A stretch of DNA of 64,000 nt from Euryarchaeota archaeon SM23-78 (lineage in GTDB: Archaea; Nanobdellota; Nanobdellia; Woesearchaeales; SM23-78), in contig LSSJ01000021.1 in the NCBI GenBank assembly GCA_001595785.1, positions 5,248 through 69,247 of the forward strand, in the 5' to 3' direction. Position numbers and translations under genes: made by a program. The notes below the pieces were generated by a model, which ran no database searches, was not told the origin of the DNA, and saw only the letters and a program-made list of their open reading frames with translations. The stretch's first letter is position 1. Each line of letters begins with the position of its first letter. Of the stretch, positions 6,545-24,066 are shown piece by piece.

Positions 6545-7267
6545 ATGCCTAAACCAAAACACTCGGAAAAGAATGGCAAGAAATCGACTGCTGATTCTGC
6601 ACTTACGGTTCGTGATTTTTCAACTCCAGAGATGAGAAAGAAAGCGTTGTTAAAAAAAGCTTTTACTCATCCGACCACTACGTGTCCAGCCGCAGGTTTT
6701 GCAGGATCAGTCTTGTGGGCAATTGTTCTTGGTCTAAGTCCAACCCTCTTCCTTATAGGTTTTGCTACCTTTGGAGCAACTTGCATTTCCTTTGTGTGGC
6801 ATTATTTTTTGTCACCCAGACCTGTAGATCCCTATGAAAAGCTTCTCGCCAGGGGTGTGACAGTAGAGGATCTGAATAATTTTCTAAGACCCTCAGTTCA
6901 AACACTTCAAAAGATCAATGATCTTCTAAAAGAATTCAGCGGCGAGTTCAAAAGAAAAGTGGAGAATTTGAGAGATATCATTCAAGCCATTCTCGAGAAC
7001 TGTGCACAAGATGATCCGAGTGATATCCGTAGAATAGCAACCTTTCCTAATCACATCCAAAGAACTGCCAAGCTGCTGGAAAAATATGCAGAGCTCCAAA
7101 GAAAAGCAGGCTGGTCAGAGACCATTCGCAAATCACTTTCTGACATAGAGGCAAGCATAACAAACTTGCATACTCACTATGTCAATCTTTTCGATCGGCT
7201 TCAACAGAACGACTTAGATGGTCTACAAGTTGAAGCTGAAACCCTTGAAAAAATTTTAGAATCCTAA
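6545..7267 (+). CDS. xpaC: XpaC-like (5-bromo-4-chloroindolyl phosphate hydrolysis family) membrane protein
   Basis: ATG lies 6 nt after AAAGGAGG. Two adjacent TM helices are followed by a helical C-terminal domain. It sits immediately upstream of a TelA-like gene, as in the known xpaC-yaaN(telA) pairing. Confidence 0.45.
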   Translation: MPKPKHSEKNGKKSTADSALTVRDFSTPEMRKKALLKKAFTHPTTTCPAAGFAGSVLWAIVLGLSPTLFLIGFATFGATCISFVWHYFLSPRPVDPYEKLLARGVTVEDLNNFLRPSVQTLQKINDLLKEFSGEFKRKVENLRDIIQAILENCAQDDPSDIRRIATFPNHIQRTAKLLEKYAELQRKAGWSETIRKSLSDIEASITNLHTHYVNLFDRLQQNDLDGLQVEAETLEKILES

Positions 7268-7279
7268 AAGGAGGTAAGT

Positions 7280-8443: not shown

Positions 8444-8605
8444 GGTAATAGGTGAGCTCTCCCCTTTCCAAGGATTGGTTTGAGCTCTCCTATTCTTTCA
8501 CTCTTAACAAACAAAAAGGAGGGAAAACACGAAAAGAGATTGAAAAACACAAAACATCAGTCTTTTCAAATCCAAAACAAAAAACCAAAAAAAAGGAGAA
8601 AAATT

Positions 8606-9691: not shown

Positions 9692-9782
9692 AGTTCAAGT
9701 GCAGTTCAAGGAAGGGCGTTGTTGGTTAATTTAATCTTCAGCGCCCTTTCCTATTTCTCAATTCTAAAAAAGGAGGTGATGT

Positions 9783-10625
9783 ATGAAGTTCTTCAAAGTC
9801 AATGCTACACCAAGCAGAGCTGTCAAGATAATCGTCCCATGGGTGCTTTTTGTTCTCTTCTTCATGCTCTACGTAAGAACTGCTGATGTCAGGCACAAAG
9901 CAAATCCAAAGGAAAAACTGACTCCGAAGATTTCCCAAATGATCGATGGATTTAAAAGATCGGTTTTTGATCCAGAAACCAGGGACCCAGACATGGTCAA
10001 GGAGGCAGAAGATAAATTCCGTCTTGCATTTGACACCTATGCCAGTCTGCGCCGTTGCTTTATTGCTTTAGCTATCATTTTCCTAGGAGTGGTCATTGGT
10101 TTAAATATGGGCACACTCCCATATTTAGAATTGCTCCTATATCGTTTTGTGCTTTTCTTTGATAAAACGCCAGCTTTAGCAATACTGCCTATTTTGTTTA
10201 TTGTCTTTGGCCTGGGAGAGGTATCTAAAATTGCTCTGATTGTCATCGGAGTGATGCCGACCATTATTCTCGATACTTATCTAAGAGCAAAGGCTTTTCC
10301 CAGAGAATTGATCACCAAGGCAATGACTCTAGGCGCTAGTCATGGCGAAATTGTCTATCGAATTGTTAAGCCAAACATTTACCCATTGGTATTAGATACC
10401 ATCCGCCTGAACTTCAAAGCTGTATTCTTGTTCCTAATTGCTGGAGAGTCTCTGGCTGCTACTGTGGGTCTGGGTTACCGGATCTTTGTCATCCGCCGCT
10501 ATGTAGCCATGGATATCATCATTCCCTATGTTTTATGGATCAGTCTGATTGCTTTCACAGCTGACCTAATCGTAAGAGTGTGGATCAATAAACGATACCG
10601 TAATCGTTGGCTACACAACAGGTGA
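9783..10625 (+). CDS. ABC transporter permease (binding-protein-dependent, NitT/TauT type)
   Basis: Multi-TM protein with an EAA-like loop (ELITKAMTLGASHGEIVYRIVKPNIYPLV). Confidence 0.8.
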   Translation: MKFFKVNATPSRAVKIIVPWVLFVLFFMLYVRTADVRHKANPKEKLTPKISQMIDGFKRSVFDPETRDPDMVKEAEDKFRLAFDTYASLRRCFIALAIIFLGVVIGLNMGTLPYLELLLYRFVLFFDKTPALAILPILFIVFGLGEVSKIALIVIGVMPTIILDTYLRAKAFPRELITKAMTLGASHGEIVYRIVKPNIYPLVLDTIRLNFKAVFLFLIAGESLAATVGLGYRIFVIRRYVAMDIIIPYVLWISLIAFTADLIVRVWINKRYRNRWLHNR

Positions 10626-10635
10626 GGAGGAAAAC

Positions 10636-11520
10636 ATGAGTGAATACGTCATAAATGTAGAAGGCGTTTATCAGAAGTACCCGGATAGGTACGGGAAAAA
10701 AAGAAAGATGCGCACAGTTCTGAATGATATCAACCTCAAAATCAGATGTGGAGAATTTGTTACCATGGTTGGGCCTACTGGCTGTGGCAAATCATCACTG
10801 TTAAGGTTGATCCTAGGCTCTGAAAGGCCTTTTTCTGGCAAGGTCTTGATGAACAATGTTGAAATCAAAGAACCTGATCGCAATCGCGGAGTTGTTTTTC
10901 AGCATTACTCCTTGTTCCCTAATCTCACAGTGCTTGAAAATGTGGTTTTTGGCCTGGAGCTGGAGCAGTTTGACCTTTCTCATCGGATTTTCAAACGTGG
11001 TTATGTCGAAGAAAAATCCAAAGAGTTCAGAGAACTAGCTACGGATTACCTTGAAAAAGTTGGCTTAGGAGAGCATCTAGATAAGTATCCTCATCAACTC
11101 TCAGGGGGTATGAGGCAGAGAGCAGCAATTGCTCAAGCAATGATCATGGAGCCACAAGTTCTGCTGATGGATGAGCCGCATGGAGCCCTTGATGTGGGGA
11201 CGCGCGAGGAGATGCAGATTTTTTTGATAGAGCAATGGGAATGTGAAAAGCAAACCATCATCTTTGTGACTCATGACCTAGAAGAAGCTATCTATCTTGG
11301 CTCCAGAATTATTGTTCTTTCCCCATTTTACTCTTGCGATGAAGGAGAAGAAGATGGTTCAAGAATCGTGAAAGACGTACCCATTGAATGGCCTCTTCCA
11401 AGACCAACAGACATGAAGCATTCAAGAGAATTCAATGATCTGATGCAAGCTATCCGAAGAGAAGGACTTGATCCTGGATATCTACAGCACATCAAAGAGT
11501 TTGACTTGAGGCACAAGTAA
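10636..11520 (+). CDS. ABC transporter ATP-binding protein
   Basis: Walker A GPTGCGKSS, signature LSGGMRQR, Walker B LLMDEP, H-loop VTHD. Confidence 0.9.
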   Translation: MSEYVINVEGVYQKYPDRYGKKRKMRTVLNDINLKIRCGEFVTMVGPTGCGKSSLLRLILGSERPFSGKVLMNNVEIKEPDRNRGVVFQHYSLFPNLTVLENVVFGLELEQFDLSHRIFKRGYVEEKSKEFRELATDYLEKVGLGEHLDKYPHQLSGGMRQRAAIAQAMIMEPQVLLMDEPHGALDVGTREEMQIFLIEQWECEKQTIIFVTHDLEEAIYLGSRIIVLSPFYSCDEGEEDGSRIVKDVPIEWPLPRPTDMKHSREFNDLMQAIRREGLDPGYLQHIKEFDLRHK

Positions 11521-11627
11521 GGATGTAAGTAGGATGCAAGTCTGGATGCTAAAACACAAGGGGGCTCCCTGACAATACCAATGCAAATATTTGGAATGTC
11601 AAAGCCCCATTTCCCCTCTGAAAAACT

Positions 11628-11685
11628 GCGCCTTGTCAAATAATTGAACAGACAGAACTGAGCCGGACGAGGCGCTTGCCTTGAA
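11628..11685 (+). promoter_or_regulatory. conserved upstream block W2 (GCGCCTTGTCA..TGAACAG..GGCGCTTGCCTTGAA), paralog of 10-63
   Basis: See W1. It ends 48 nt before ATG 11734, the first gene of the ORFan block. Confidence 0.35.
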
Positions 11686-11733
11686 AAAAACAGAGAAAAA
11701 TTTCTCGATTATAAATTATATAAGGAGAATGAA

Positions 11734-12420
11734 ATGCAAAGATATAAACTTGTTAGAATCTTTCTCTTAACTACTACTCTTTTAATCAATACCCCTTTGT
11801 TCTCTCAGTGCTTTGACTTAATCCCTAATAAGTCTGCTGATGAAGATAGAATTCTTAAATTGTTAGTAGTGGCTGATTCTGGGTACAGGGTTGAAGTAGT
11901 TAATTGGAGAAAAGAAATATCTAGAATAATTTCTACGATGTCTATGCTGCTTTCGGTTCAGAAAACAGGTCTTAGTTTAGAGATTACTAGATATGCACAC
12001 TGGCAGAGAGAAACAGAGAGTGATAAAGGCTTTTTATCTGTGCTCATTGAGTTAGAAAAAGATTTTCCCAGAGATAAGAACCAAGGTGTTGATATAATCA
12101 TGGGATTAACTTCTCATGGATTACAAGAAGCCCAAGCATGCGCTGATTCACAAAAGGGTTATATAGTATTAAGTAATAAGACCTTGGTCTCACCTTCTGA
12201 CCGACCAATACTGTTGGTTCCTGTTCTGATTCACGAACTAGGACATATCTTTGGGTGTAATGATGTTGATGGTAAAGACTCAGTAATGAAAAGAGCTATA
12301 ACCCTGATAAAAGGTCAACCCACTCCTGTGTTATACGACCAGAAGAGCCTAGAAAAAATAAGGGTAAATAAGTGGAGAAAGTTCCCAAGTAAGGTTAATT
12401 GGAGGGAATACCTAAACTAA
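11734..12420 (+). CDS. secreted zinc metalloprotease-like protein (HExxHxxGxxD, metzincin/snapalysin-like)
   Basis: Signal peptide present. Motif LIHELGHIFGCNDVDGKDSVM, that is HExxH followed by G, D and a possible Met-turn. Confidence 0.5.
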   Translation: MQRYKLVRIFLLTTTLLINTPLFSQCFDLIPNKSADEDRILKLLVVADSGYRVEVVNWRKEISRIISTMSMLLSVQKTGLSLEITRYAHWQRETESDKGFLSVLIELEKDFPRDKNQGVDIIMGLTSHGLQEAQACADSQKGYIVLSNKTLVSPSDRPILLVPVLIHELGHIFGCNDVDGKDSVMKRAITLIKGQPTPVLYDQKSLEKIRVNKWRKFPSKVNWREYLN

Positions 12421-12484
12421 AAATGTCTTTTAAAAGGTTTTTGAATAAAAAACTTTGGCCTAAAGCCAAGAAAGGAGAATAATA

Positions 12485-12889
12485 ATGAAAGAACTCTTTG
12501 AAATAACTTATCATTGGTTTCTGGTTGCCCTGTACCTAGTCACAATAGCCATTGTTTTTCTTTGGGCTAAACGATTAAGAAAATTTGAGGAAATAAAAAA
12601 AGGTGGCGTTGTACGATTTTTTATAGATGCAGGGTATAATCTTACAATCCTATCATTCCTCTACACCTTTTTCACATCTATTTCAGAACTAGTATTTAAG
12701 AATTACTCAAATTTCTGGACTTATTTTACCATAGGTTGCGGTATGTTGGGATTAGGTGTTCTTCTTCTCGGATTTGCTTCATTAAAAATTAAAAAGTATC
12801 TTGGAGACTCTCCTTACAGAGCAGAAATGAGCTTAAAAGAATTAGAGAAGAGGAACAAGGCTGAGTTAAAAAAATTAGGGTTGAAATAG
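12485..12889 (+). CDS. hypothetical membrane protein
   Basis: 134-aa ORF with AAAGGAG upstream and 3-4 hydrophobic helices. Confidence 0.5.
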   Translation: MKELFEITYHWFLVALYLVTIAIVFLWAKRLRKFEEIKKGGVVRFFIDAGYNLTILSFLYTFFTSISELVFKNYSNFWTYFTIGCGMLGLGVLLLGFASLKIKKYLGDSPYRAEMSLKELEKRNKAELKKLGLK

Positions 12890-12898
12890 GAAAGAAAC

Positions 12899-13066
12899 AT
12901 GAAACTAGGACTATTACCAATTCTTATGGTGATTGTTACAGTTATTTACATACTTTTCCTGAAATACATGAAACGAAAACAAGATTCTGAGTTCAAAAAA
13001 ATCAATAAAGATTTTGAGGAAAGAGATAAACTACTTCCAAAAAACAAGAAAGGAGAAAACAAATGA
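12899..13066 (+). CDS. hypothetical small membrane protein (55 aa, below the ORF-track cutoff)
   Basis: Manual translation MKLGLLPILMVIVTVIYILFLKYMKRKQDSEFKK..KGENK. One TM helix. Its stop overlaps the next ATG (ATGA). Confidence 0.35.
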   Translation: MKLGLLPILMVIVTVIYILFLKYMKRKQDSEFKKINKDFEERDKLLPKNKKGENK

Positions 13067-13278
13067 ACATCTTAACAGGATCAGTATTAATTTTGCTGGG
13101 AGCAATTGTTCTTGCTGTTGACTTATATGTCGGTACTATTCTAATAAAAAGTGAAAAAAGGTCTAAAAAACAGAGATACGGAAAGATTCGAAATACTGTA
13201 ATTGGTGCACTCTCCCTAGGCGCAGCTTGTACTGTGGTTATTGTGCTGGGAATCCTCAGATTGCTTGATAAATGGTAA
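13063..13278 (+). CDS. hypothetical small membrane protein
   Basis: 71 aa with two TM helices. AAAGGAG upstream. Confidence 0.45.
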   Translation: MNILTGSVLILLGAIVLAVDLYVGTILIKSEKRSKKQRYGKIRNTVIGALSLGAACTVVIVLGILRLLDKW

Positions 13279-13330
13279 AAAGAGGAACAGGGTTTAGAAA
13301 AAAGGAGGCGCTAAAGGAGGTGAATGAGTA

Positions 13331-13422
13331 TGAGGGCCCTGTAAGGCGCTTTCAGAGCTCCTGTTGTTACTCAGGGGATGGGTATCTTGTAGATTCCACC
13401 GCTGGTACAAGCAGGGCCCTCA
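13331..13422 (+). ncRNA. structured element E1 (paralog of 16193-16290)
   Basis: A perfect 11-nt closing inverted repeat TGAGGGCCCTG/CAGGGCCCTCA encloses about 70 nt. E1 shares with E2 the flanks TATGAGGG..CCCTCACCA.GCA..AAACAATT and an internal GGGTATYT. Confidence 0.3.
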
Positions 13423-13492
13423 CCAGCAAAGAAAACAATTCTGTCAAAAGCTTGACAATTAACATAAATAAAAATATTAATAGGAGGTTATT

Positions 13493-14059
13493 ATGAGTCC
13501 AAAAACATGGTATTGGATATTTTTCTTTGTATGCTCATTCGTGGGCATTGCTTTGATCATCTGGAGTTTGGTATTGGATAGAAAAGCAAGAAAGATGAGT
13601 GATTCTCTTCCTGGTCTAGGACTCGCTATTGCATCTATTCTAACACTCATATTTGGGTCAATTACCTATGTCCTTTTAAAGGCACAAGAAGAGCCTGACT
13701 TGTTCTCAATGATTAAAACATCCTTAATCATCTGGGGAGTTGGCTTGTTGATTGCTATTCTGATTACTGTTGCAGGATACTCACGATATGTTGACGAGAA
13801 AGGCAGAACCTCAAATCTTGGCTTTAATGTTATTGTAGTTCTGTCTCCTTTCTTCATAGTTGGTGTTTACTATGCGCTCTGGTTCTTGTTCTCCAGAATA
13901 GGAATGCTTGTCAGAAAGATATTCCCTGGTACAAGGTTTTTTTATGGCTGGTTTGGAACATCTGTGTTGGGCTTTATTGCTTTTTTATTAGCAGCATTCT
14001 TCATATTGATGTTCATAGAAATAGCCCGAGATTTCAGAGTTGAGAATAACTCTGCCTAG
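13493..14059 (+). CDS. hypothetical polytopic membrane protein
   Basis: 188 aa with TAGGAGG upstream and about 5 TM helices. Confidence 0.55.
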   Translation: MSPKTWYWIFFFVCSFVGIALIIWSLVLDRKARKMSDSLPGLGLAIASILTLIFGSITYVLLKAQEEPDLFSMIKTSLIIWGVGLLIAILITVAGYSRYVDEKGRTSNLGFNVIVVLSPFFIVGVYYALWFLFSRIGMLVRKIFPGTRFFYGWFGTSVLGFIAFLLAAFFILMFIEIARDFRVENNSA

Positions 14060-14068
14060 GAGGATAAA

Positions 14069-14812
14069 ATGACAATTGTTTTTATCATCCTTGTTGGAGT
14101 TGTAGTTGCTATTGTCTGGGAATTTGGGATAACTGGTTTTCTTATCCTTGTAGGATTGGTAGTGGCTGTTATCTGGGGCTTGGTGCTAGCAGGAGGGAGT
14201 GCTCATCTAACCACTTATCAAAAAAGAATCATTTTTAATCCTCCTCAAAAACCTGAAGAGGAAGAGATAAAAACAGAAAATGATACAGAGCAGAAAAAGC
14301 AGGCAAAAAGAAAAGAGGATTCCAAGAAGAAAAAAGTGGTTCAACAAGAGCAGAACAATGAGATAAAGCTAAATCTGACTGAATTAATTGAAAGTAAAAG
14401 AAAAGAGTGGTATAAGCTGAGAAGAAAGCATAAAGTACGCTATATATCTTACCGAAGAATTGTGCAGAGTTCAGAGCTAAAGTGCATCTGTTGCCAACAC
14501 AATGAATTTGTTTATTGCGGCCCTTACTACAACTGTGATTGTGAAGCTCACTTCTTTCTATGTACTCAATGTAAAAGAAGTTTTATCCTGGACAGAAAAC
14601 AAATAAGCAGCATATTCTGGGAGCGAAAAAAGAAGTATCAATTGATGAAGGAGAAAAAACAAGCATCAGCAGAAGTATCTGAAAAAGAGACAATATCCAT
14701 GCCTAATTCAGCGCCAGTAGTTGTCAAACCAAAGCAGAAACCTAGATCCAAACCAAGACGTGTAAAACAAGTCAGGATGATCATAGAGATGAAAAGAAGA
14801 TTATTTTTCTAA
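14069..14812 (+). CDS. hypothetical membrane-anchored protein with Lys-rich linker and Cys-rich (zinc-ribbon-like) domain
   Basis: Two N-terminal TM helices, a K/E-rich segment, and cysteine pairs CICCQH..CGPYYNCDCEAHFFLCTQCK. Confidence 0.5.
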   Translation: MTIVFIILVGVVVAIVWEFGITGFLILVGLVVAVIWGLVLAGGSAHLTTYQKRIIFNPPQKPEEEEIKTENDTEQKKQAKRKEDSKKKKVVQQEQNNEIKLNLTELIESKRKEWYKLRRKHKVRYISYRRIVQSSELKCICCQHNEFVYCGPYYNCDCEAHFFLCTQCKRSFILDRKQISSIFWERKKKYQLMKEKKQASAEVSEKETISMPNSAPVVVKPKQKPRSKPRRVKQVRMIIEMKRRLFF

Positions 14813-14823
14813 GGAGGGAAAAA

Positions 14824-15165
14824 ATGTCGAATAAAAAATCAAAAAAGCAAAGAGAATTCGAAGCTTGGGAAGAGCTTGATAGGCTTCTAGAAGAAATCTT
14901 TTGCGATCGTCGTTTAGCTATAAAACAAGAAGAAATAGAACAAGACTTAGAAGCCTACCGAGAAGAAAGAGCTCGGATTCTCAAAGACCCAGAAAGCACA
15001 GACCCTGAAGAGCTAGAACAACTCTCAAAAAAACTCATAAGCCACTTAGAGTTTCTCAAAAGGTCAGAGCACCCAAAAGCCCAAAGCTCGGCAAGAATGC
15101 TGGAAATCATTCTCAAACAGAACGGAATTCTAGATTTACACAAACCAAAATCAGAGGAGGGATAA
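14824..15165 (+). CDS. hypothetical acidic coiled-coil protein
   Basis: 113-aa ORF with AAGGAGGG upstream. No recognisable family. Confidence 0.45.
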   Translation: MSNKKSKKQREFEAWEELDRLLEEIFCDRRLAIKQEEIEQDLEAYREERARILKDPESTDPEELEQLSKKLISHLEFLKRSEHPKAQSSARMLEIILKQNGILDLHKPKSEEG

Positions 15166-15166
15166 A

Positions 15167-15409
15167 ATGCAAAAAGTTAACAAGCACACAATTGAAGATT
15201 TAGGAGAGTACATCATATTATGTCTCAAAGAGCTGAAAAAACAAGGTACAACAAAAGTGCCCCTCTCTAAAATATACAAAATGCTAGTGGAAAAAGGTTT
15301 GTTGTTTAGAGAGGACGAATTGAAAATAGAAATGGATGACCTCTACTGCAGGGTAAAAATAGTTGACATTGTATGTATACACCCAGAGCTGACCTACATT
15401 CTGAAATGA
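15167..15409 (+). CDS. hypothetical protein
   Basis: 80-aa ORF with GAGGAGGG upstream, tightly packed after the previous gene. Confidence 0.4.
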   Translation: MQKVNKHTIEDLGEYIILCLKELKKQGTTKVPLSKIYKMLVEKGLLFREDELKIEMDDLYCRVKIVDIVCIHPELTYILK

Positions 15410-15855
15410 AGAAACTCCTTAATCATAAATCACCTGATATGATGTTTACTTTTCAGCAACTCTTGAACACACTGGGAGGCAGCCCTTTGCTCCACGTCAG
15501 TGAGGTTAGACCCTCCTTCCCTCCTGACAAAAGGGTCTGTCTCCCTATCCCATCTATTTTTAAGGAGAAAAACATGAGTGAAAATAATGAAAATCTCAAA
15601 GAAAAGAAGGAACTTGATTGGATTGAGGTGGAAGAGGTTGAATCTATTTTCAACTTAATCCTAAAAGAAGAAGAACCACAAAAGAACAAGGCCTTAACTG
15701 TAATGGGTCAAATCCTCTTAACCTGCTGTCCTCATGCTGAGGATGATATAAAGAGAGTGGCAGATGAAAATCTGAAAGAGGAAAAACTTACTCAGCAAGA
15801 GTACGATAAAATCATGGTTTTCATAAAAATACTTGCAAATGGAGGACCTAAATGA
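15406..15855 (+). CDS. hypothetical protein (start uncertain; alternative ATG at 15574 after AAGGAG)
   Basis: ATGA overlap with the upstream stop at 15406. An SD-preceded internal ATG at 15574 gives MSENNENLKEKK... Confidence 0.4.
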   Translation: MKKLLNHKSPDMMFTFQQLLNTLGGSPLLHVSEVRPSFPPDKRVCLPIPSIFKEKNMSENNENLKEKKELDWIEVEEVESIFNLILKEEEPQKNKALTVMGQILLTCCPHAEDDIKRVADENLKEEKLTQQEYDKIMVFIKILANGGPK

Positions 15856-16192
15856 AACAGATAAGTGATCTAACCAGAATGGCGGGAATAAGAAAGAAGA
15901 GTAGAGTGAGAAAAAGAAACAAAAAACACTTTCCTATTCCATCTAACGATAGAACCCGTCCAACTCGAATTAAAAGGTATCGCATAGTCCAGCTCTACCA
16001 CGACCGCCACATCATCTTCTAGCCCAGGAAAAGAGCATGGCCAACAACAAACATACATGCATCAAGAAAAGCAAAAAGAAAAAGAAGAACCATATAGAGC
16101 CAGAGGAAATGGTAAAAAACAAAAGGCTGGTTAATAATTCCAGAAATAAGTAATTATATAACCAAAATACTCTGGCTCAACTTTTTCTAATA

Positions 16193-16290
16193 TGAGGGAG
16201 CAAGGGCAGGCAGGGCCAACACCCCCTTTTTGGGTATTTCAACCCAATCCCCCTTTGCTGATAAAAAGAGTCCGCGTCCAAGCTCCCTCA
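16193..16290 (+). ncRNA. structured element E2 (paralog of 13331-13422)
   Basis: Closing stem TGAGGGAGC/GCTCCCTCA. Inner pairs AGCAAGGG/CCCTTTGCT and TTGGGT/ACCCAA. Same flanks as E1. Confidence 0.3.
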
Positions 16291-16358
16291 CCAAGCATGC
16301 AAACAATTAGGCAAACGCCATTTTAATCCAATACATATCTTAATGAAGGAGGACTAAA

Positions 16359-16763
16359 ATGAAAAAACCATTCTTTATCATTGTTCTGTTAATCCTTGTC
16401 TACTCTGCTATTGCTCAAGTTGAAGAACTTAAGCCTAGTATTCTTTTTCAAGAATCAACCCAGGTTAGCAGTTTCTCATTTCAGAGAGGTTCGCTCTATG
16501 TTGTAATGACTAATCCTGCGATTGTAGAGATACAATACATGTCTCGAAAAGATTATACCACCCCAGGATGGAAGAACATCTTGGTATTCATTGATGTGGG
16601 TGAAAAAGAAAACGAGTGGATAGTGTGGAACACAGAAGAAGAGGACCCAGAAAAACAGTACTTTGAAGTTCACATAAAGAAAAGCACTTTTGAAAAAATC
16701 GATACCATAGTAAAGTCTGAGTTGGATAATAGAGGCTTGATTCATAAAGAAAATAATCTGTGA
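16359..16763 (+). CDS. hypothetical secreted protein
   Basis: 134 aa with GAAGGAGG upstream and signal peptide MKKPFFIIVLLILVYSAIA. Confidence 0.5.
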   Translation: MKKPFFIIVLLILVYSAIAQVEELKPSILFQESTQVSSFSFQRGSLYVVMTNPAIVEIQYMSRKDYTTPGWKNILVFIDVGEKENEWIVWNTEEEDPEKQYFEVHIKKSTFEKIDTIVKSELDNRGLIHKENNL

Positions 16764-16850
16764 GAAAAAAATAAATCCAGAAAGGAGGTGTTGTTAACAA
16801 CAAATATTTTTCCCTAACCACACCAAAAATCCATTAGAGGAGGAAAAACT

Positions 16851-17102
16851 ATGTGGTGGAATTTATTAATCAGTCCGGTCTTAGGGATTGGTTGTGTCTT
16901 ATTGAACCTTCTTGAAGAAAAGGTTCAATTTGCTGCTGTCGGCATAGTCATATTCTTTACGAACTGGGCTTTTCGCGGTGTAGGCCACTTCTTCGAAGGC
17001 CTGTTGTTTGGAGCCGTGTTCATCGCAGTATGCGTTGGTACGCAGGCTCTTAAAAGCGGTCAAACCCAAAAAGCACCGGCAAAAAGTCAAAAAAAAACCT
17101 GA
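16851..17102 (+). CDS. hypothetical small membrane protein
   Basis: 83 aa with GAGGAGG upstream and 2-3 TM helices. Confidence 0.45.
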   Translation: MWWNLLISPVLGIGCVLLNLLEEKVQFAAVGIVIFFTNWAFRGVGHFFEGLLFGAVFIAVCVGTQALKSGQTQKAPAKSQKKT

Positions 17103-17290
17103 TCAATCCTGGCGGTCAGAACCACAATCCAACAGAGAAAAAGGCTTGACTCACTTCTTGACCTTAGTTGTTAGAATTTGAGGAAGGCCTTTTTCTCTCT
17201 TCAAAAAGCTAAATGGGTGGGGCTAACAAAAAAACCAAACTCGTCTGAGTATTAAATAAAATAAAAAACTAAAGGAAAGGAATAAAAAAA

Positions 17291-17848
17291 TTGGAAAAAG
17301 AAAAAACAAAAAGCAAAGGTGAAGGTGAGTTCAGAGAACTCCTTCCTGGGGAAAAGGTTGCTATTATGAGACAGATAAGAGAAGCTGAGAGTCATACTTC
17401 TGCAGAAATCGCCACTGCTTTTGTGCCTGATTCCAGCAAGTTCTACTCTAAATTCAGGAGTGGGAATCCTAGTCTTAAAGACCTGACCAAGCATGAGGTT
17501 GAGCTAGCAGTTTATTTCAAAGCCAAAGAGGTTTTTGAAAAGCTAATAGAAGCAGAAAATCTTTCAGATGAAGTGGCTGGTCGCACAGTCCTGATTCTTT
17601 GGTCACACAAAGAGAGGAAGATACAGATTGTTGGAGGCACGCTCATCAGGCAGGAATTGTTAAAGCCAGACAAGATGCAACCCATTATTGAGATGATTGA
17701 AAAAGGGATTGAAGCTTCTCAAAGAGACATTGACATCAGCACTATTCAAGAGGTAATCATAGCCTTGGAAGAGAAGCTTAAAAACCTCTTGCCTTGGTGG
17801 TCTGGAGATGTGGATGAGGTCACAGACAAACCATTCGAGACAGAATAA
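17291..17848 (+). CDS. hypothetical protein, weak TPM-domain-like N-terminus
   Basis: 185-aa ORF (TTG start, uncertain). IMRQIREAESHTSAEIATAFVPDS is loosely reminiscent of TPM/YgcG-type domains. Confidence 0.35.
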   Translation: MEKEKTKSKGEGEFRELLPGEKVAIMRQIREAESHTSAEIATAFVPDSSKFYSKFRSGNPSLKDLTKHEVELAVYFKAKEVFEKLIEAENLSDEVAGRTVLILWSHKERKIQIVGGTLIRQELLKPDKMQPIIEMIEKGIEASQRDIDISTIQEVIIALEEKLKNLLPWWSGDVDEVTDKPFETE

Positions 17849-17918
17849 GTAGTGCGATAAAAAAAATCTTGTCTCAATAAATCACTCTTAAAATCAAAGG
17901 AATCAAAGGAGGTTATCT

Positions 17919-18269
17919 ATGTTTTCACAAATTCTTGATTATCTTAGCTTGGACAATCCTCTAACCAAGGTTATTGCTCTCGCGTTCATAGTAGGAGCAG
18001 CTCATTTCATCATCACCAAGTTCTTCACCAAGTTAAAACTGCACACCAGGTTGTTCACTGCTTTTCTAGCAGCAGGGCTGACCTTTTTAGCCCAGCAGTT
18101 CGTGATGATCAACAATACTTATGTGTACTTTGCACTCGGTTTTATTGGGTTAATCTTTCTGATCATGATATTCACAAAGATATCTAGGGCACAGGAAAGA
18201 AAAAAGGCAAAGAAGGAATACATAAGTCGACCAGAGCCACCATTGACAGAGGAAAAACCAGAATCCTAA
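17919..18269 (+). CDS. hypothetical membrane protein
   Basis: 116 aa with AAAGGAGG upstream and three TM helices. Confidence 0.5.
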   Translation: MFSQILDYLSLDNPLTKVIALAFIVGAAHFIITKFFTKLKLHTRLFTAFLAAGLTFLAQQFVMINNTYVYFALGFIGLIFLIMIFTKISRAQERKKAKKEYISRPEPPLTEEKPES

Positions 18270-18418
18270 GGCCAAGGGGTTGGATTATTCTTTTAGAGTG
18301 ATTCAGCCCCTGCTTCTCTTCAAAATCAAAAAGGGGATGCTTAACAAAGAAGAACTAAGCTGACCCATTAACATAATATTCTTTAGAGTAAAAATTGTTT
18401 GAAAGGGAGGTTTCTGAC

Positions 18419-19516
18419 GTGATTAAATTCTCGATTGACAAAAAACAAAAGGAGCACAATGAAGAAGGGCAGCCTTGGTATGACACCAAGGAAGGTATTC
18501 TCAACTCCCTCAAATCATTTCCAGATTTAGTTCAGATGATTGAGGAACGTCATACAGCTGGCTATTGCAGAAATGAAAGGCTGAACCAATTCTACGTGCT
18601 GGGACGGTATTGGCTGGATAGTTGCGGAAACTGCTGCAAGGCCCAGGGCTTTATTCCCAAGGAGCAGTTCGCTGATATTCCTGATGTCCTGACTAAGGAT
18701 GAATTCTGGGATTTCATTAAAAAGCATCAGGAAGACAAAGAACTAATGATTTCATTCGTATTGCAAAGCGATATGCCTCTTCCTAACATCACCTGCCCGG
18801 TCTGTGGAAAAGGATGGGACATCCAAAACTGCCATGACACAGTTGTGTGGCACAAAACAGATGCTATATCGCTTACTGATTTTGTCGGTAAGACACTGGG
18901 ACAAGTCAAGCAGCACTATAACCAGCTCACCAATGCTATCTACAGGATGCAGTCAGACATTCTCATCCGCAATGACAGGTTCATTGATTTGTCACCCAAG
19001 TATCCCAAACCCGAACATGACTGGCAGAAGAGAATCGTGAAAAACCAAAATGGATGGGTCTCTGAAAAGGATGGGATCACAGATGACTATGTCATCCAGA
19101 AAGGCGATGAAGGCTTTTTCAACATCTGGGCCTACTATCATGGTGTGTGCAACCGCGAGCATCTGGAGAAGACAGAAGAGCAGGAATTCAGGAAAATCTT
19201 TGAGAAAGCAGGCTTCCAAGACATAAGGATGAGTGCCATTCTCAACCAGTACTGCGGATGCGACCACTGTGCTCCATGGTTCAATGTAAACACAGAGTTC
19301 GGCACAATTACGATTGGCTGGAGAAAAAGAGTTATCAACATTGACTGGAGCAAAGTTGAAGAAGCATCGCAAGCATGTGGTGAATTCCCTAAGCCCAACA
19401 TCATATCATTATTTGCAGATGAAGATGTAACAAAGGGCCAAGCCTACATTCATGCCTGGGGATGGGAGAAAGCTCAGGATTACCTGTCACGTATTCATTC
19501 TCATCTTGCTAGCTAA
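18419..19516 (+). CDS. hypothetical Cys-rich protein
   Basis: I prefer the GTG at 18419, which lies 8 nt after AAGGGAGG. Several Cys clusters (CGNCCKAQG, CPVCGKGW..NCH, CGCDHC). No family recognised. Confidence 0.5.
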   Translation: MIKFSIDKKQKEHNEEGQPWYDTKEGILNSLKSFPDLVQMIEERHTAGYCRNERLNQFYVLGRYWLDSCGNCCKAQGFIPKEQFADIPDVLTKDEFWDFIKKHQEDKELMISFVLQSDMPLPNITCPVCGKGWDIQNCHDTVVWHKTDAISLTDFVGKTLGQVKQHYNQLTNAIYRMQSDILIRNDRFIDLSPKYPKPEHDWQKRIVKNQNGWVSEKDGITDDYVIQKGDEGFFNIWAYYHGVCNREHLEKTEEQEFRKIFEKAGFQDIRMSAILNQYCGCDHCAPWFNVNTEFGTITIGWRKRVINIDWSKVEEASQACGEFPKPNIISLFADEDVTKGQAYIHAWGWEKAQDYLSRIHSHLAS

Positions 19517-19648
19517 TCTGGCAAAAAAAGTAGAACAGAATAAGAAGGGAGGAAGTACGATAGTCCTAGGGGAGCTATCTGGGTCAGTTGACTTGTGATA
19601 AGGGAAGTCCTGGCCCCTTCCTCTCTCTTCAAAACTAAAGGAGGTATT

Positions 19649-21034
19649 ATGAGAAGATTTGATTATGAGGGCCCAGTGGTTTCCTCTTTTTGGGACAAAT
19701 TCAAACACACCCTGAGAACAACTTCTATTGAGATCCTTATTCTTGCCTTAATCGGAGGAGGTATTGGTTTTTATCTCTCCTTTAAGGCAGAAAAAAGAAG
19801 AGAGGGTAATATTCCTATTGGCTTCTCTGAAATCTCTCAGATTGAAAGAGATGCTGTAGCAAAGGATAGCCAACTCTCAGAGCTGAACAAATTCCTTCCT
19901 CTTGTGAATGATTTCTTCATGAAGATAGCAGAGAGCTGGAACAACGCCCATCAAAAGAAAAGCACTGTTCCAATAAGTGATATTTATGCTGGCTCTGAAA
20001 AACCAAGCAAAAGAACTCTGTACACTCGATTTGCTGAAAACCTTTATCCTCGAATGAACATTCAATTCAGACAATACCATTACGAGTTAAAGGATATTGT
20101 AGACCTACTACCTGTACTCGCAAATGCTGTCATTAAAGGACTCTCTGATTATCGCACTGTTTGCCAAAGTCTTCCTGCTGTTATTAACAACTTTGACAGA
20201 GCCTGGGATTATGACCCAGACCATAAGTATAAAACTGAGGTTAGAACCAGGACAGGTATAGATATGGACGGCAATCCAACAGTTGAGATTTATACAGAAG
20301 AAGTGTATTCACACACCATCCACACTTATGACTATCACCAGGAATACGGTAATAAAGCCTCTTATCAGTTAACAGCGCTGGTATCCAAATACCCTGTGCT
20401 TAAGCTGAAGAAAGGATTAATGATAGCGTCTGAAACTCATGAGGAAGGAAGAAGAGCTGCTGCTGAAAGCAGAAGAAAAAAATCTCCTGAAACAGAAGAA
20501 GAATACAGGATGATAGCAAGCATTTGGAGAAAAGGCTCAACCCTAAAAATTGCAGTTGATAATATAAATCCTGTATGGCCAGTACTTGTACGTGGAGCAG
20601 ACAATTGGAGCTCTGTAAAAGATAATGTCTGGAAAAATACTAATGGCAAAAACAGGTATCGTTACAGAACTAACAGAAGAAGCAATCCAGGTCCAAAAGA
20701 ATACCAAGTAGCAGAAACAAACCTGCAAAATGCAAGACAAGTAAAGCAAAACATAGACCAAATGTTCCAAGGCATCAATTATGTCAAAACCCAGATTCCT
20801 CTTCTTGAACAAAAAATCAAAGAGATAATTGATATTGAAGTTGAGCGTGTAATACAAGGTGACAGCAAAAAGCTCACAGATGATATTATAAGCATTGCAA
20901 GAGAAATGTACGAGCTGAACTTTAGCAAAGGCTTTGATGTGAAAGGTTTCAGAGCTGGTATGGTCGTGCTTTTCAGTTTTCTCGGAATCATTGCTGGGAT
21001 CGGTCTTGGAATTCTCTGGGATCGATTGACATAG
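19649..21034 (+). CDS. hypothetical protein with N- and C-terminal TM anchors
   Basis: ATG at 19649 lies 5 nt after AAAGGAGG. TM helices at ILILALIGGGIGFYLSF and MVVLFSFLGIIAGIGLGILW. No family recognised. Confidence 0.5.
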   Translation: MRRFDYEGPVVSSFWDKFKHTLRTTSIEILILALIGGGIGFYLSFKAEKRREGNIPIGFSEISQIERDAVAKDSQLSELNKFLPLVNDFFMKIAESWNNAHQKKSTVPISDIYAGSEKPSKRTLYTRFAENLYPRMNIQFRQYHYELKDIVDLLPVLANAVIKGLSDYRTVCQSLPAVINNFDRAWDYDPDHKYKTEVRTRTGIDMDGNPTVEIYTEEVYSHTIHTYDYHQEYGNKASYQLTALVSKYPVLKLKKGLMIASETHEEGRRAAAESRRKKSPETEEEYRMIASIWRKGSTLKIAVDNINPVWPVLVRGADNWSSVKDNVWKNTNGKNRYRYRTNRRSNPGPKEYQVAETNLQNARQVKQNIDQMFQGINYVKTQIPLLEQKIKEIIDIEVERVIQGDSKKLTDDIISIAREMYELNFSKGFDVKGFRAGMVVLFSFLGIIAGIGLGILWDRLT

Positions 21035-21057
21035 AGACCAAAAAAAGGAGGAATATC

Positions 21058-21288
21058 ATGAATATTTTCATTGCTTTGCTTCTTTCTGTAGTCATCGGAT
21101 TTGTAGTCGGAAAAATCCTAGGACCAGGTAAGGATTTTTCATGGCTTGCATTTGGTGTTGCACTATTTGTTTGCCTTGGAGGTGTGGGCCTGATCTTTGG
21201 GCTTGCCTGGTGGATTATCAAAATCATCTTCTTTGGGTGTTTGGTTGTCCTGTTGATCTTGATCATCAGGAAAATCTTTGGCAAATAG
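21058..21288 (+). CDS. hypothetical small membrane protein
   Basis: 76 aa with AAAGGAGG upstream and three hydrophobic helices. Confidence 0.5.
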   Translation: MNIFIALLLSVVIGFVVGKILGPGKDFSWLAFGVALFVCLGGVGLIFGLAWWIIKIIFFGCLVVLLILIIRKIFGK

Positions 21289-21442
21289 AAAGAAGCAGAA
21301 ACCTTAAGAGTGAAATTAGGGGTGTTCTTTTTTGTCTTATGATAAGAGAGACGCCCCTTTCCTCTTTTCAAAAAATCAAAGAGAAAGTAATCTGGCATTC
21401 TATGCTATTGATATAGATAATCTACAAGTATAGGAAGAAAAT

Positions 21443-21679
21443 GTGAATATTCCTTTTGATTTTATTGCTGATCATTGGTGGGTTTGGCTTATCTGTTTTG
21501 TTGTCTGCATCATTCTTACCATAATCCTTTTTGTTAAATCTCGTGTAACCAATTTATCTGGCACAGTAGATATCAAGTTCTCTGTGTTTATGTTTATTGG
21601 TCTTCTTAATCTGGCAAGCGTGGCACTGCTATTCATAGCCGTGGTTGTGCAGATAATCAGGTATGCCAAGACTTTGTAA
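21443..21679 (+). CDS. hypothetical small membrane protein
   Basis: 78 aa with a GTG start and a weak SD. Two TM helices. Confidence 0.35.
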   Translation: MNIPFDFIADHWWVWLICFVVCIILTIILFVKSRVTNLSGTVDIKFSVFMFIGLLNLASVALLFIAVVVQIIRYAKTL

Positions 21680-21893
21680 GAAGACAAAATACAATGTGCT
21701 ACTTGATGTGTAGAGGCGGAGAGTACATAGGAAATTTGGTCTGGAAAAAGGATGAACCTGAAAACTCAGAAGGTTAAGAACAAGCGGGCTGGAATCAATT
21801 TCTTAATTTTTAAGATTTTGATGAAGGCCCTTTCTCTCTCAGTTTTTTTTTGAAATATTTGTTTTCTATATAGAAAATAATAATCTGTTTTAC

Positions 21894-21917
21894 CTCGCGA
21901 GCTTTGCGAGCGAGCAA
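21894..21917 (+). repeat. GA-flanked hairpin repeat, solo copy 1 (CTCGC-GA-GC-TTT-GC-GA-GCGAG-CAA)
   Basis: Identical over 25 nt to the copy at 63707-63731. First element of the archaeal-side repeat family, 45 nt upstream of the RHH gene. Confidence 0.7.
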
Positions 21918-21961
21918 ATCCAAAACATTTATATATACTAAAACATTACAATTCAATTACA

Positions 21962-22231
21962 ATGGTAATGGATACTTTGCAAATAAGATTAACACAGGAA
22001 ATGATAAAACTAATAGATTCGTTTGTAAAAAAAGGCATATACAACAGCAGATCTGATGTGATAAGAGATGCTGTCAGAAGACTTGTGTGGAAGAAAGAAG
22101 TAGGAACAATCCCAAACACAGGAGACTCTGTCAAAGAAATAAGAGAGATAAGAAAAAAGCTTTCAAAAGAAATAAAGAGCTTCAAAGACATAGAAAAAAT
22201 CAATAAAGAATTCAAACATCTAATCAAATAA
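21962..22231 (+). CDS. CopG/RHH-family DNA-binding protein (antitoxin-like)
   Basis: N-terminal ribbon-helix-helix pattern LQIRLTQEMIKLIDSFVKKGIYNSRSDVIRDAVRRLV. Confidence 0.65.
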   Translation: MVMDTLQIRLTQEMIKLIDSFVKKGIYNSRSDVIRDAVRRLVWKKEVGTIPNTGDSVKEIREIRKKLSKEIKSFKDIEKINKEFKHLIK

Positions 22232-22667
22232 AGTCCTCTGGCATGCCTACTCTAATAATTTTTTTTGCAACTTTAATTAATTTTTTATCTCTAGTTACAA
22301 GTGTAAAGTTAAATCTCTTACATACTGCTATGTGTAAACAATCCATAAAGCTTATGTCATAACAAGAATTAGATTCTAATTCCCTAGCAAAGGCATAATC
22401 TTCTTTAGTAGCCTTCACAAATCTAAAATATTTCTCCTTATTAAACAGAGATGTTTTTTGTTTAAACAATTCCTTATTTTTAATCTTAAACCACAATTCT
22501 TTAAGAACAAAACCCGAGTATATTACTTCTTTATTATTTGAACAAGAAACATTTTCAAGAAAATTCCTTGACATTTCCCAAAAGAGCTTATTTTTATCTT
22601 TACCTATTTCCTTCCACCAAATATTAAGGTAAACACAAGCATCTAGATAATAAGATTCTTTATTCAT
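22224..22667 (-). CDS. PIN-domain protein (VapC-like)
   Basis: YYLDACVYLN (first acidic residue) and DCLHIAVCKRFNFTLVTRDKKL (C-terminal TxD). 147 aa. Confidence 0.6.
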   Translation of the reverse strand: MNKESYYLDACVYLNIWWKEIGKDKNKLFWEMSRNFLENVSCSNNKEVIYSGFVLKELWFKIKNKELFKQKTSLFNKEKYFRFVKATKEDYAFARELESNSCYDISFMDCLHIAVCKRFNFTLVTRDKKLIKVAKKIIRVGMPEDFI

Positions 22668-22746: not shown

Positions 22747-24066
22747 TCAAAAGAAATCTCCTAACCCCGTCTGACTCTTCTTAACAGGCTCTTGCGGCTC
22801 TGCCGCAAGCTCAGAATCTTGTTTTGATTCTGTTGCTGGTTTAGGTTTGTCTTCCTTAAAAGCCTCTTCTCCATTAAGCAAAGGAACCCCGTATTCACCA
22901 TCAAAGCCAGGCTTAATCTCAAGTTTGCCTTCTCTGTTCTTTAAAATGGTATCAACCATCTTTTCATCAGCAACCTTGATAAGTTCTTCCTTAGGAACCT
23001 TAAGCAAGATGTCAAACTCATTCTTACCAGCCTTTAAGATTTCATAATACTTTACCCATACCTTCTTAGTAGCCATCCCGCTTTTTAGAACAAGCGATAA
23101 TATTTCATGCAAAGGAATAATCTTTTTAAAAGGCTTAGCATCTTTAGATTTTTCACCTATTTTTCTATCAGCTAATTCATCAACACGATTAAGAACACCA
23201 ATAGTTAAGGGGCGCTTACAAACAGGACACATACCATTATGCTTCTTACTTTCTTCAGGACTAAAACTAATCCCACAGTTCCTATGCCCATCAAAATGAT
23301 ACTTGCCATAGTTAGGGTCAACCTCTATGGTTTCAACTAATCCTTCATCTGTGCGTAAGGCTTTGATAAGGTTATTGTAAGTCAACTCTTTTAACTCAAA
23401 AACAGTTGATTCCCGCCCGATACGCCAAGGCCAAAAACTATGACTATCAGAAAAACTAACAAGACGATACTTATCAAGCTTTGATAAGCGCCAATTCATC
23501 TCAGGGTCACTGCTAAGACCTGTCTCTAAAGCATGAATATACTTTGCTTTATCACCAAAGCACTCCTCAACACTGTCAAAACCAGATTTAGAACCAAACA
23601 AGCTAAACCAAGGAGTCCAGATATGAGCAGGAATAATCTCAATATCTTCACTTATCTTCATCAATGCTTCAACAAACTCAGAGCAAGGAATATTAAACAT
23701 AGGTCTACCATCATAATCAACTCTTCCCTTAGATTTAAGATACTCAGTAATCTTATCAACTATCTCAAAGCTAGGAGCAAGCACAACAAGATGGATTCTT
23801 CTACCTTTATACTTCTGAGTATAGATGAGTGATATTTCATTCTGTAAAACAAAAGGAAAGCCATCCTTTGTCTTTAAAATACCAGTGCCATCCTCTTTAA
23901 GCTCTTTTTTCAGCTCCTTCTGCCATTCAGGATGAGAAAAATCACCAGTGCCGAGCAAACCCAAACCCTTAACCTTAGCCCATTTCTCAAGATTAGGAAT
24001 AGATAACTCTGCACTGCAAGCCCTTGAATACCTAGAATGCAGGTGTAAATCAGCTATTATTCTCAT
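22747..24066 (-). CDS. endoQ: endonuclease Q-like PHP-domain nuclease with zinc ribbon
   Basis: N-terminal DLHLHSRYSRA.. PHP motif, GTGD, SFSDSHS, a CPVCKRPLTIGVLNRV zinc finger, and a C-terminal GFDGEYG. Length (439 aa) and motif order match the archaeal EndoQ family. Confidence 0.75.
   Translation of the reverse strand: MRIIADLHLHSRYSRACSAELSIPNLEKWAKVKGLGLLGTGDFSHPEWQKELKKELKEDGTGILKTKDGFPFVLQNEISLIYTQKYKGRRIHLVVLAPSFEIVDKITEYLKSKGRVDYDGRPMFNIPCSEFVEALMKISEDIEIIPAHIWTPWFSLFGSKSGFDSVEECFGDKAKYIHALETGLSSDPEMNWRLSKLDKYRLVSFSDSHSFWPWRIGRESTVFELKELTYNNLIKALRTDEGLVETIEVDPNYGKYHFDGHRNCGISFSPEESKKHNGMCPVCKRPLTIGVLNRVDELADRKIGEKSKDAKPFKKIIPLHEILSLVLKSGMATKKVWVKYYEILKAGKNEFDILLKVPKEELIKVADEKMVDTILKNREGKLEIKPGFDGEYGVPLLNGEEAFKEDKPKPATESKQDSELAAEPQEPVKKSQTGLGDFF

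Follow-up and report, generated by a model that had tools for sequence, protein, structure and literature searches.

A probable long-resident, largely bacterial-derived island with a conserved boundary beside endoQ in Woesearchaeota

A stretch of 64,000 nucleotides from Euryarchaeota archaeon SM23-78 (assembly GCA_001595785.1, contig LSSJ01000021.1; the whole stretch is referred to here as the window) joins two very different kinds of DNA. To the left lies a block of co-directional genes preceded by Shine-Dalgarno (SD) sequences, and to the right an archaeal gene set headed by endoQ and two small genes. The join is not an assembly error but a true chromosomal boundary, conserved among a group of tiny DPANN (named after Diapherotrites, Parvarchaeota, Aenigmarchaeota, Nanoarchaeota as well as Nanohaloarchaeota) archaea. 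The segment 21,843-21,883 is probably the genuine and conserved right end of a one-directional, SD-led, largely bacterial-derived island of at least 27 kb that has long resided in Woesearchaeota. A first-pass annotation of the sequence had left three options for the left-hand region: a bacterial-derived island in an archaeal genome, an integrated or episomal element, or an assembly or binning chimera. The evidence supports the first.

A boundary shared beside endoQ

Relatives of the join were found from the genomic contexts of EndoQ homologues and by a pattern scan of metagenome contigs. Looking for the same junction in related genomes, a check that the first-pass annotation had proposed, recovers the adjacency of block and endoQ, together with the boundary motif, in four further Woesearchaeota lineages. 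Their EndoQ proteins share 67-85% identity with that of the window, and in each an SD-led, one-strand block ends beside endoQ. The first (L021/L022, GCA_019322375.1; EndoQ 85%) keeps the synteny of the right side, and SD-led genes for an OMP_b-brl protein and a 598-aa protein follow its ribbon-helix-helix (RHH) and PIN-domain genes. In the second, represented by a 566/570-kb contig (L024/L026/L063; EndoQ 77%), one-strand, SD-led genes encoding lipobox, membrane and pilin-like proteins run for at least 19 kb, up to the 3′ end of endoQ. The same arrangement occurs in L066 (EndoQ 78%) and L065 (67%). L023 (EndoQ 82%) has neither the block nor the boundary motif beside endoQ. Three genes from the block in the window or in its leftward extension, contig L017, are matched in the L026 block by homologues of 58%, 27% and 60% identity, which are not colinear.

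Alignment of six junction sequences from the five lineages reveals an invariant T8, a spacer of 5 nt, and then ATTTATTT(T/A)C(T/C)ATAT(A/G)GAA, while the DNA left of this element cannot be aligned among them. A run of T8-11, 5 nt and ATTTATTTTCTATATAGAA constitute the signature that block ends beside endoQ have in common. The palindrome TTTTCTATATAGAAAA, which the first-pass annotation had correctly placed at the join (21862-21877), lies inside the element. Its conservation had gone unnoticed, and it is the combination of T-run and palindrome that marks the boundary. In three lineages the element follows the stop codon of endoQ, a convergent gene, at 100-200 nt; in the window and L021, RHH and its convergent neighbour PIN are located between the two. 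The element may consist of the oligo-T terminator of the array and a palindromic site.

Two other roles for the element were considered and rejected. An integron-like cassette array is incompatible with the presence of a single copy of the motif per locus, and the palindrome is not the operator of the RHH protein, as the element is kept in lineages without RHH.

Bacterial envelope domains are also encoded in the relatives. The L021 protein at 12279-12839 (-) is a true beta-barrel protein of the OMP_b-brl family (PF13505, E 1e-10). An L026 protein (5305-5898) has an N-terminus resembling that of bacterial N_methyl prepilins (KKGFSLIE; E 8e-4, below the cutoff). Like these two, a LysM protein in L061 (16253-16585) is a case of a bacterial envelope domain in an archaeal contig.

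The join in separately assembled samples

Public contigs were retrieved by exact-protein look-up and then compared with the window by BLAST. Four of them span 21.85-21.9 kb with 99.8-100% identity (Table 1); each stems from a different, separately assembled sample, and their names come from at least three assembly pipelines. The same six samples contain both left- and right-hand contigs, and all tested proteins from both sides of the join are recorded on one 70,454-bp NCBI contig. Among exact repeats that touch the join, none is longer than the 25-nt core of a hairpin, which is too short to mislead an assembler. A chimera induced by a shared RHH/PIN module was rejected, since lineages lacking RHH and PIN show the same adjacency.

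Translation signals and composition of the block

As first annotated, every credible gene left of the join lies on the + strand and the genes are SD-led. A strong AGGAGG-type SD precedes 19 of 30 left genes versus 3 of 35 right genes (Fisher p=3.7e-6). RpoB′ and RpoB″, internal to the RNA polymerase operon of the right side, are also SD-bearing. The host therefore uses SDs inside operons, and the contrast may stem from operon organization in addition to ancestry. Contig L017 extends the array leftward by 5.2 kb with GH17, ankyrin and small SD-led genes. The products of the array are for the most part secreted, lipobox or membrane proteins; at least 16 of them carry an N-terminal signal, lipobox or anchor segment, as judged by eye from their N-termini. 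Scans for sigma-70 promoter and intrinsic-terminator consensus sequences gave an excess of only about 2 standard deviations on the left, which was judged uninformative.

GC content, tetranucleotides and codon usage, which the first-pass annotation had suggested comparing, do differ across the join, though moderately. GC content is 0.415 on the left and 0.380 on the right, GC content at third codon positions (GC3) is 0.39-0.43 versus 0.32-0.37, and CGN codons make up 26-51% of Arg codons versus 9-12%. Tetranucleotide correlations are 0.47-0.88 across the join and 0.76-0.91 within the right side. Relative synonymous codon usage (RSCU) correlates at 0.66-0.87 between block and host side and at 0.93-0.97 between parts of the right side, while the correlation of the block with two sampled loci of the candidate phyla radiation (CPR) is about 0. 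The junction-proximal half of the block is the more host-like in codon usage. Such host-like usage would be consistent with long residence in the archaeal clade. Because the block shares gene clusters with other DPANN genomes and its codon usage is far nearer to the host side than to the two CPR loci, the island is presumably not a recent import. Atypical composition and signals, closest relatives elsewhere (for a few genes, and without trees), and presence or absence among relatives are all features of an island that the block displays.

Probable bacterial ancestry of much of the array

Much of the array is probably of bacterial ancestry, including a Patescibacteria-type protein of 365 aa and a cluster encoding VWA, OmpA_C-fused solute-binding protein (SBP), XpaC, TelA and urea-type ABC transporter proteins. 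The 365-aa Cys/His-rich protein has 319 homologues, and all named ones (45-61% identity) belong to Patescibacteria (CPR). The two homologue loci inspected (L027, L028) lie in bacterial contexts, namely GroES/EL-UvrB-UvrA and MurJ-LepA-RF1-FtsEX-NifSU. The CPR proteins found in such core bacterial surroundings share 60-65% identity with the protein of the window. A scan of GTDB for the family found 32 loci, mostly from CPR, with two labelled Nanoarchaeia. A 60% homologue is present inside the block of the 566-kb Woesearchaeota contig. Across CPR, the family is deeply diversified in many classes, and its C-terminal domain is also found on many large IMG/VR contigs (35-37% identity). The left side had initially been described as diderm-bacterial in content. 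OmpA_C, XpaC and TelA are indeed encoded there, but the content is not specifically diderm, as the best-sampled gene is of the Patescibacteria/CPR type.

The AlphaFold2 (AF2) model of the 365-aa protein is of high confidence, with a predicted local distance difference test score (pLDDT) of 95.4 and a predicted template modelling score of 0.87. A Foldseek comparison of the model with the PDB returns no fold match (best TM 0.09), and the sequence matches no Pfam, NCBIfam or PHROG family. Residues C126, C129, H241 and C244 are invariant in the family, while C279, C281, C284 and H345 are invariant or nearly so. The family may represent a new fold or enzyme.

Two further loci carry members of this family in contrasting surroundings. 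A lone, truncated 365-aa gene is found in an AT-rich, SD-poor archaeal context (L050, JAQUSD010000005.1). A contig binned as Nanoarchaeia (L030, JBGOZE010000011.1; GC3 0.65) encodes solely block-like, SD-led genes, and its codon usage correlates with that of the L026 block at r=0.90. This contig is probably either another copy of such an island or mis-binned. In L030, the 365-aa family gene is adjoined by a homologue of the 78-aa membrane protein that is encoded by the last gene of the array.

The envelope and transport cluster is defined by Pfam and NCBIfam matches (Table 1), and a metalloprotease-like protein is also among the families matched on the left side. The OmpA_C domain of the SBP fusion scores 56.4 bits against PF00691 (cutoff 27.2) over residues 413-500 and is predicted to bind peptidoglycan. 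Below 1e-30, 237 representative relatives of this fusion are found; the best (48%) belongs to a Nanoarchaeota metagenome-assembled genome (MAG), on a 253-kb contig (JANLHM010000005.1), and the next named relatives are from KSB1 bacteria. The Nanoarchaeota contig encodes a partly colinear cluster (570 aa-VWA-OmpA-281 aa-TelA-SBP, with permease and ATPase) in which six proteins share 42-59% identity with those of the window, and it is compositionally homogeneous, OmpA/TelA cluster included. A related VWA-XpaC-x-TelA cluster is found in a flagellated bacterium (L019). The search for TelA homologues gave 8 weak, unnamed matches and was useful only through the contexts of L019 and L020. No catalytic peptidoglycan hydrolase domain was detected in the window, and no gene between 12.4 and 21.7 kb matches a Pfam or NCBIfam family. 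The gene at 1515-2195 (226 aa) had been annotated as a TorF-like porin. This assignment was not confirmed: the protein has no Pfam match even at E<=1, and its single-sequence AF2 model is unusable (pLDDT 34).

Contig L020 (SRR19237659_3920) encodes XpaC together with a TelA of 34% identity, the second-closest non-self relative after one at 47% on a short contig. L020 is 15 kb long with a GC content of 57%, consists almost entirely of small, one-strand orphan genes and a HipA/HTH pair, and appears phage- or plasmid-like.

The archaeal side and the host

The genes right of the join are archaeal, as the first-pass annotation had recognized. RHH, PIN and EndoQ are followed by a Big_9 surface protein, a P-type ATPase and Elp3, and an RNA polymerase operon has the order RpoH-RpoB″-RpoB′-RpoA′-RpoA″-L30e-NusA(KH)-S12, with split RpoB and RpoA′/A″. 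EndoQ has hundreds of close relatives named Woesearchaeota or Nanoarchaeota (‘endonuclease Q family protein [Candidatus Woesearchaeota archaeon]’). RpoA′ of the window shares a 90% cluster with MBW2991303.1, a protein that is annotated as Candidatus Woesearchaeota archaeon. The host is a Woesearchaeota (DPANN/Nanoarchaeota) archaeon.

RHH and PIN are convergent with an 8-nt overlap, and not arranged in the co-directional operon expected of a type II (VapBC-like) toxin-antitoxin pair. The RHH gene is present only in the window lineage and L021; in L024, L066 and L065, which lack it, the element lies directly next to endoQ. PIN of the window and PIN of L021 share 41% identity; for RHH and EndoQ the values are 77% and 85%. 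The promoter region of the RHH gene, with a TATA-like box that would be of the leaderless archaeal type, is kept in L021 and in a variant strain of the window lineage.

The first-pass annotation had listed multi-intron tRNAs on this side, but neither ARAGORN nor Rfam (at the gathering threshold and at E<=0.1) detects a tRNA or any other RNA gene in the 64 kb. Multi-intron tRNAs, if present in the window, evade these standard detectors. Six tandem repeats of about 72 nt are found inside the Big_9 surface-protein gene (24640-25142), and related copies occur in inverted orientation in a second gene (52682-52879). These copies suggest Cys-rich repeat modules common to two surface proteins.

Gene-end hairpins and a short hairpin repeat

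The small features flanking the join, the T9 at 21843-21851 among them, lie exactly where they were first annotated. The pyrimidine tract GGCCCTTTCTCTCTC had been proposed as a recurrent left-hand motif. As a fixed 15-mer it is not enriched (5 matches at <=3 mismatches versus 2.4 expected); it does belong to a loose family of four gene-end tracts that form hairpin arms. The tracts constitute the 3′ arm of significant hairpins at 17135-17197 (z -3.6) and 21306-21366 (z -5.6), and a further gene-end hairpin lies at 18270-18314 (z -5.4). Each of these three hairpins is followed by YCUUCAAAA and not by a U-tract, and all lie within the final 5 kb of the block; they may serve as terminators, as RNA stabilisers or to sequester SDs. 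At the junction, the copy folds weakly (21765-21851: -20.8 kcal/mol, z -1.35), with T9 after it. Its counterpart in L021 is a very stable hairpin before the T-run (-48 kcal/mol, z -6.2) that has the form of a bacterial intrinsic terminator. A T8-T11 run after the last array gene in all lineages resembles archaeal oligo-T as well as bacterial intrinsic terminators, and the L021 hairpin resembles the latter. The weak hairpin of the window and the other hairpins without U-tracts differ from bacterial intrinsic terminators.

The right-hand hairpin family is real, with three + strand copies versus none expected and one - strand copy. The junction copy (21894-21917) includes the hairpin CTCGCGAGCTTTGCGAGCGAG (21894-21914). 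Other copies are at 37164 (37157-37188, +), 63708 (63701-63732, +) and 47317 (47317-47349, -). They are intergenic and belong to the archaeal side; one, for instance, separates rpoA″ from the L30e gene. The junction hairpin had been thought to bracket the join; it is rather a small, strain-specific insertion outside the join itself. It is missing at the homologous position in L021 and in contigs of the variant strain (L005/L007), whose backbone is 99.7% identical to the window, and is therefore a recent insertion of a short repeat. The family looks recently mobile or insertable, in the manner of repetitive extragenic palindromic sequences or miniature inverted-repeat transposable elements (REP/MITE-like). 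In the variant strain, the DNA directly left of the boundary element is unrelated to that of the window, and turnover has therefore occurred right at the boundary. A search of metagenome contigs for a 43-nt sequence specific to this strain gave 0 matches.

Table 1. Features of the window and public contigs that cross the join
Feature	Position	Strand	Evidence or remark
Island, right-hand 21.7 kb of an at least 27-kb co-directional SD-led array	1..21679	+	Runs at least 5.2 kb further left
Conserved envelope/transport cluster	2375..11520	+	Pfam and NCBIfam; partial synteny with Nanoarchaeota contig
571-aa SBP-like/OmpA-like protein	Cluster start	+	Weak OmpA_C in 2279-4090
VWA	4102-4839	+	Pfam/NCBIfam
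SsuA-like SBP and OmpA_C fusion	4943-6517	+	OmpA_C E 4e-15
XpaC (XpaC-type Halogen_Hydrol)	6545-7267	+	E 7e-13
TelA	7280-8443	+	E 8e-40
Urea-type SBP (NMT1/urea-type)	8606-9691	+	TIGR03427, 453 bits
ABC permease	9783-10625	+	Pfam/NCBIfam
ABC ATPase	10636-11520	+	Pfam/NCBIfam
365-aa Cys/His-rich protein, Patescibacteria (CPR)-type family	18419..19516	+	Homologue search
78-aa membrane protein, last array gene	21443..21679	+	Called in public assemblies
Pyrimidine tract GGCCCTTTCTCTCTC	21826..21840	+	One of four gene-end tracts: 17188, 19614, 21354, 21828
Conserved boundary element: T9, 5 nt, ATTTGTTTTCTATATAGAAAATAATAA	21843..21883	+	Junction alignment
Short hairpin repeat CCTCGCGAGC-(TTT/AAG)-GCGAGCGAGCAA	21892..21918	+	TTT in junction copy
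TATA-like box TTTATATATA	21928..21937	+	34 nt before RHH ATG; putative leaderless-type archaeal promoter
RHH (CopG-family) gene, first on archaeal-style side	21962..22231	+	PF01402, E 1.4e-7
PIN-domain gene	22224..22667	-	PF01850, E 1.8e-12
endoQ, conserved archaeal anchor beside block in five lineages	22747..24066	-	PF27218
ERZ27275891 k141_1630945 (16.4 kb)	7,919-23,544		Crosses join
JGI 3300027901 Ga0209427_10034163 (5 kb)	19,755-24,813		Crosses join
Logan SRR5248174_243354	21,543-23,422		Crosses join
JGI 3300028897 Ga0309836_1007127	21,762-32,667		Crosses join

Origin and maintenance of the island

The simplest account is that an old island of mostly bacterial origin was fixed beside endoQ in the ancestor of a Woesearchaeota clade, with rapid gene turnover since. 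The array would be transcribed by the archaeal RNA polymerase as long polycistronic units, and its internal cistrons would therefore rely on SD-mediated initiation, while the mono- and bicistronic genes of the right side would be mostly leaderless. Transcription of the array may end at the oligo-T run, and the palindrome beside it (core CTATATAG) may act as a boundary, bind a protein or be a TATA-like site. Later insertion between element and endoQ in the window lineage would account for the RHH gene and its leaderless-type promoter, for the PIN gene convergent with it, and for the small hairpin repeat.

Several observations weigh against this account. The left end of the island falls beyond the DNA that could be retrieved, and an integrase or attachment (att) site could lie further left. 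The block of the 566-kb relative is distant in composition from the backbone of that genome (GC3 0.59 versus 0.44; RSCU r=0.40), a pattern that recent or repeated import explains better than long residence does. L023 lacks the block beside endoQ despite being a close relative, and the strain with the 99.7%-identical backbone has unalignable DNA directly left of the element. Shared AT bias accounts for part of the RSCU similarity between block and host. The donor assignments are based on MAG labels and few genes, the majority of the block genes being orphans. Transcription, T-run termination and the role of the palindrome are all inferred.

A recently integrated mobile element, such as an integrative plasmid, an integrative and conjugative element or a provirus, could also give rise to the arrangement. 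Such an element would have entered each lineage independently and site-specifically beside endoQ, with the T-run and palindrome as att or terminal site. In each genome the composition of the block does differ from that of the backbone, and in L026 the difference is strong; close relatives include one without it; and the DNA left of the element has been replaced in a nearly identical strain. Variable, non-colinear gene content next to a conserved terminal motif would suit such an element as well, as would the 365-aa family members on large IMG/VR contigs and the TelA/XpaC pair on the phage- or plasmid-like contig. However, no integrase, transposase, relaxase or capsid domain was found with Pfam in 27 kb (21.8 kb of the window and 5.2 kb of L017), ten orphan block proteins gave 0/10 PHROG matches, and a 479-aa gene has no IMG/VR relative. 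The first-pass annotation had likewise noted neither integrase nor tRNA at the boundary, and no att-like direct repeat is seen in the visible part, the left end being unseen. No tRNA is detected in the window, and with one motif copy per locus no second att site is seen. The OmpA/TelA cluster is embedded in a compositionally homogeneous 253-kb Nanoarchaeota contig, and codon usage in the window is much nearer to the host side than to the two CPR loci. Recent integration thus appears unlikely, and keeps what probability it has because the far end is unseen, the composition is distinct and close relatives differ in presence.

Alternatively, the block may be native DPANN DNA. Its bacterial look would then come only from operon architecture, with SDs for internal cistrons, and from the composition of envelope proteins, and its families would have moved from DPANN to CPR and other bacteria or be ancient. 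The SDs on operon-internal RNA polymerase genes of the right side, the Nanoarchaeota best match of the OmpA fusion, the lack of detected bacterial homologues for most block genes and the presence of the block in five lineages are consistent with this. Nevertheless, the 365-aa family is deeply diversified in CPR and found in core bacterial contexts, with only 2 of 32 GTDB loci archaeal. OmpA_C in the window and OMP_b-brl, N_methyl and LysM in the blocks of relatives are typically bacterial envelope domains, TelA/XpaC clusters are seen in bacteria too, and GC3 and Arg codon usage differ from the backbone. A native origin is decidedly unlikely.

A chimera of a bacterial (CPR-like) and an archaeal contig is suggested by the abrupt shift in SD usage, strand bias and composition, by public contigs ending within 0.3 kb of the join (L002 21762, L003 22105, L008 22084), and by a block-like contig binned as Nanoarchaeia without any archaeal gene (L030), but it is almost certainly wrong, being contradicted by four assemblies that are identical across the join (the Logan contig included), by the absence of a shared repeat of misleading length, by the co-occurrence of left and right contigs in six samples, and by the same adjacency and motif in four more lineages at the species level, with a 566-kb contig among them.

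Relation to known systems and significance

Transfer of membrane-associated genes and ABC transporters from CPR to DPANN, and bacterial genes in Woesearchaeota, where they are abundant, and Pacearchaeota, are documented (PMC8204110; PMC12455944). The island therefore counts as a case of unusual size and structure within a known kind, and not as a new kind. Like the bacterial gene sets described in DPANN genomes (Castelle et al. 2021, PMC8204110; Gios et al. 2025, PMC12455944; Jaffe et al. 2019, PMC6389311), it has a Woesearchaeota/Nanoarchaeota host and Patescibacteria among its donors, is biased towards membrane proteins and ABC transporters, and contributes to a hybrid archaeal-bacterial proteome. 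Whereas the cases described in these papers are single genes, pathways or small islands, this is one contiguous, co-directional, SD-led array of at least 27 kb, at a fixed chromosomal position and with a conserved 40-nt boundary element in five lineages. A non-exhaustive literature search found no description of this architecture. What is new is the architecture of the island: its scale, strictly unidirectional SD-led organization, fixed locus and conserved boundary motif. Classical genomic islands share the atypical composition, presence or absence among relatives, variable cargo and sharp boundary. They also have an integrase and att repeats, and often a tRNA; none was found in the visible part of this island, whose boundary lies beside endoQ.

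Genes for peptidoglycan binding had seemed to make little sense in an archaeon. Published work on archaeal peptidoglycan-targeting proteins and on transfer of membrane genes from CPR to DPANN (PMC12352652, PMC12455944, PMC8204110) speaks against that objection, and archaeal proteins of this kind that were acquired from bacteria are documented (PMC12352652). ‘Vampiristic’ Woesearchaeota have been proposed as well (PMC9723730, as cited in PMC12352652). The OmpA_C domain of the window and LysM of L061 are likewise peptidoglycan-binding modules of bacterial origin in an archaeon and, by analogy, hint at interaction with bacteria. Unlike the published proteins (PMC12352652), the OmpA_C domain is fused to an SBP domain within a TelA/XpaC stress-type cluster, and the window encodes no detectable catalytic hydrolase.

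A more far-reaching possibility is that the island constitutes a bacterial-type envelope toolkit with which this Woesearchaeota clade would attach to bacteria or exploit them, perhaps Patescibacteria or diderms, and not archaeal partners. The T-run and palindrome would then be a dedicated recombination or insulator site for the continual swapping of cassettes with co-resident bacteria. The parts of the toolkit would be the OmpA_C and LysM modules, the OMP-like beta-barrel, the type-IV-pilin-like protein, lipobox proteins and VWA adhesins. Such a surface toolkit for bacterial partners is a speculative and rather unlikely reading.

The long-resident island remains the preferred explanation. For the curation of MAGs, it means that a contig resembling a chimera can be genuine, and that automated contamination filters would wrongly cut such DNA. 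In a DPANN archaeon, bacterial-derived genes can form one large unidirectional block with its own SD-based translation regime, and such a block can be kept at one locus across a clade, with a conserved boundary, while its content turns over. The peptidoglycan-binding, adhesin-like, lipoprotein and transporter content of the island offers a testable lead on the partners of Woesearchaeota.

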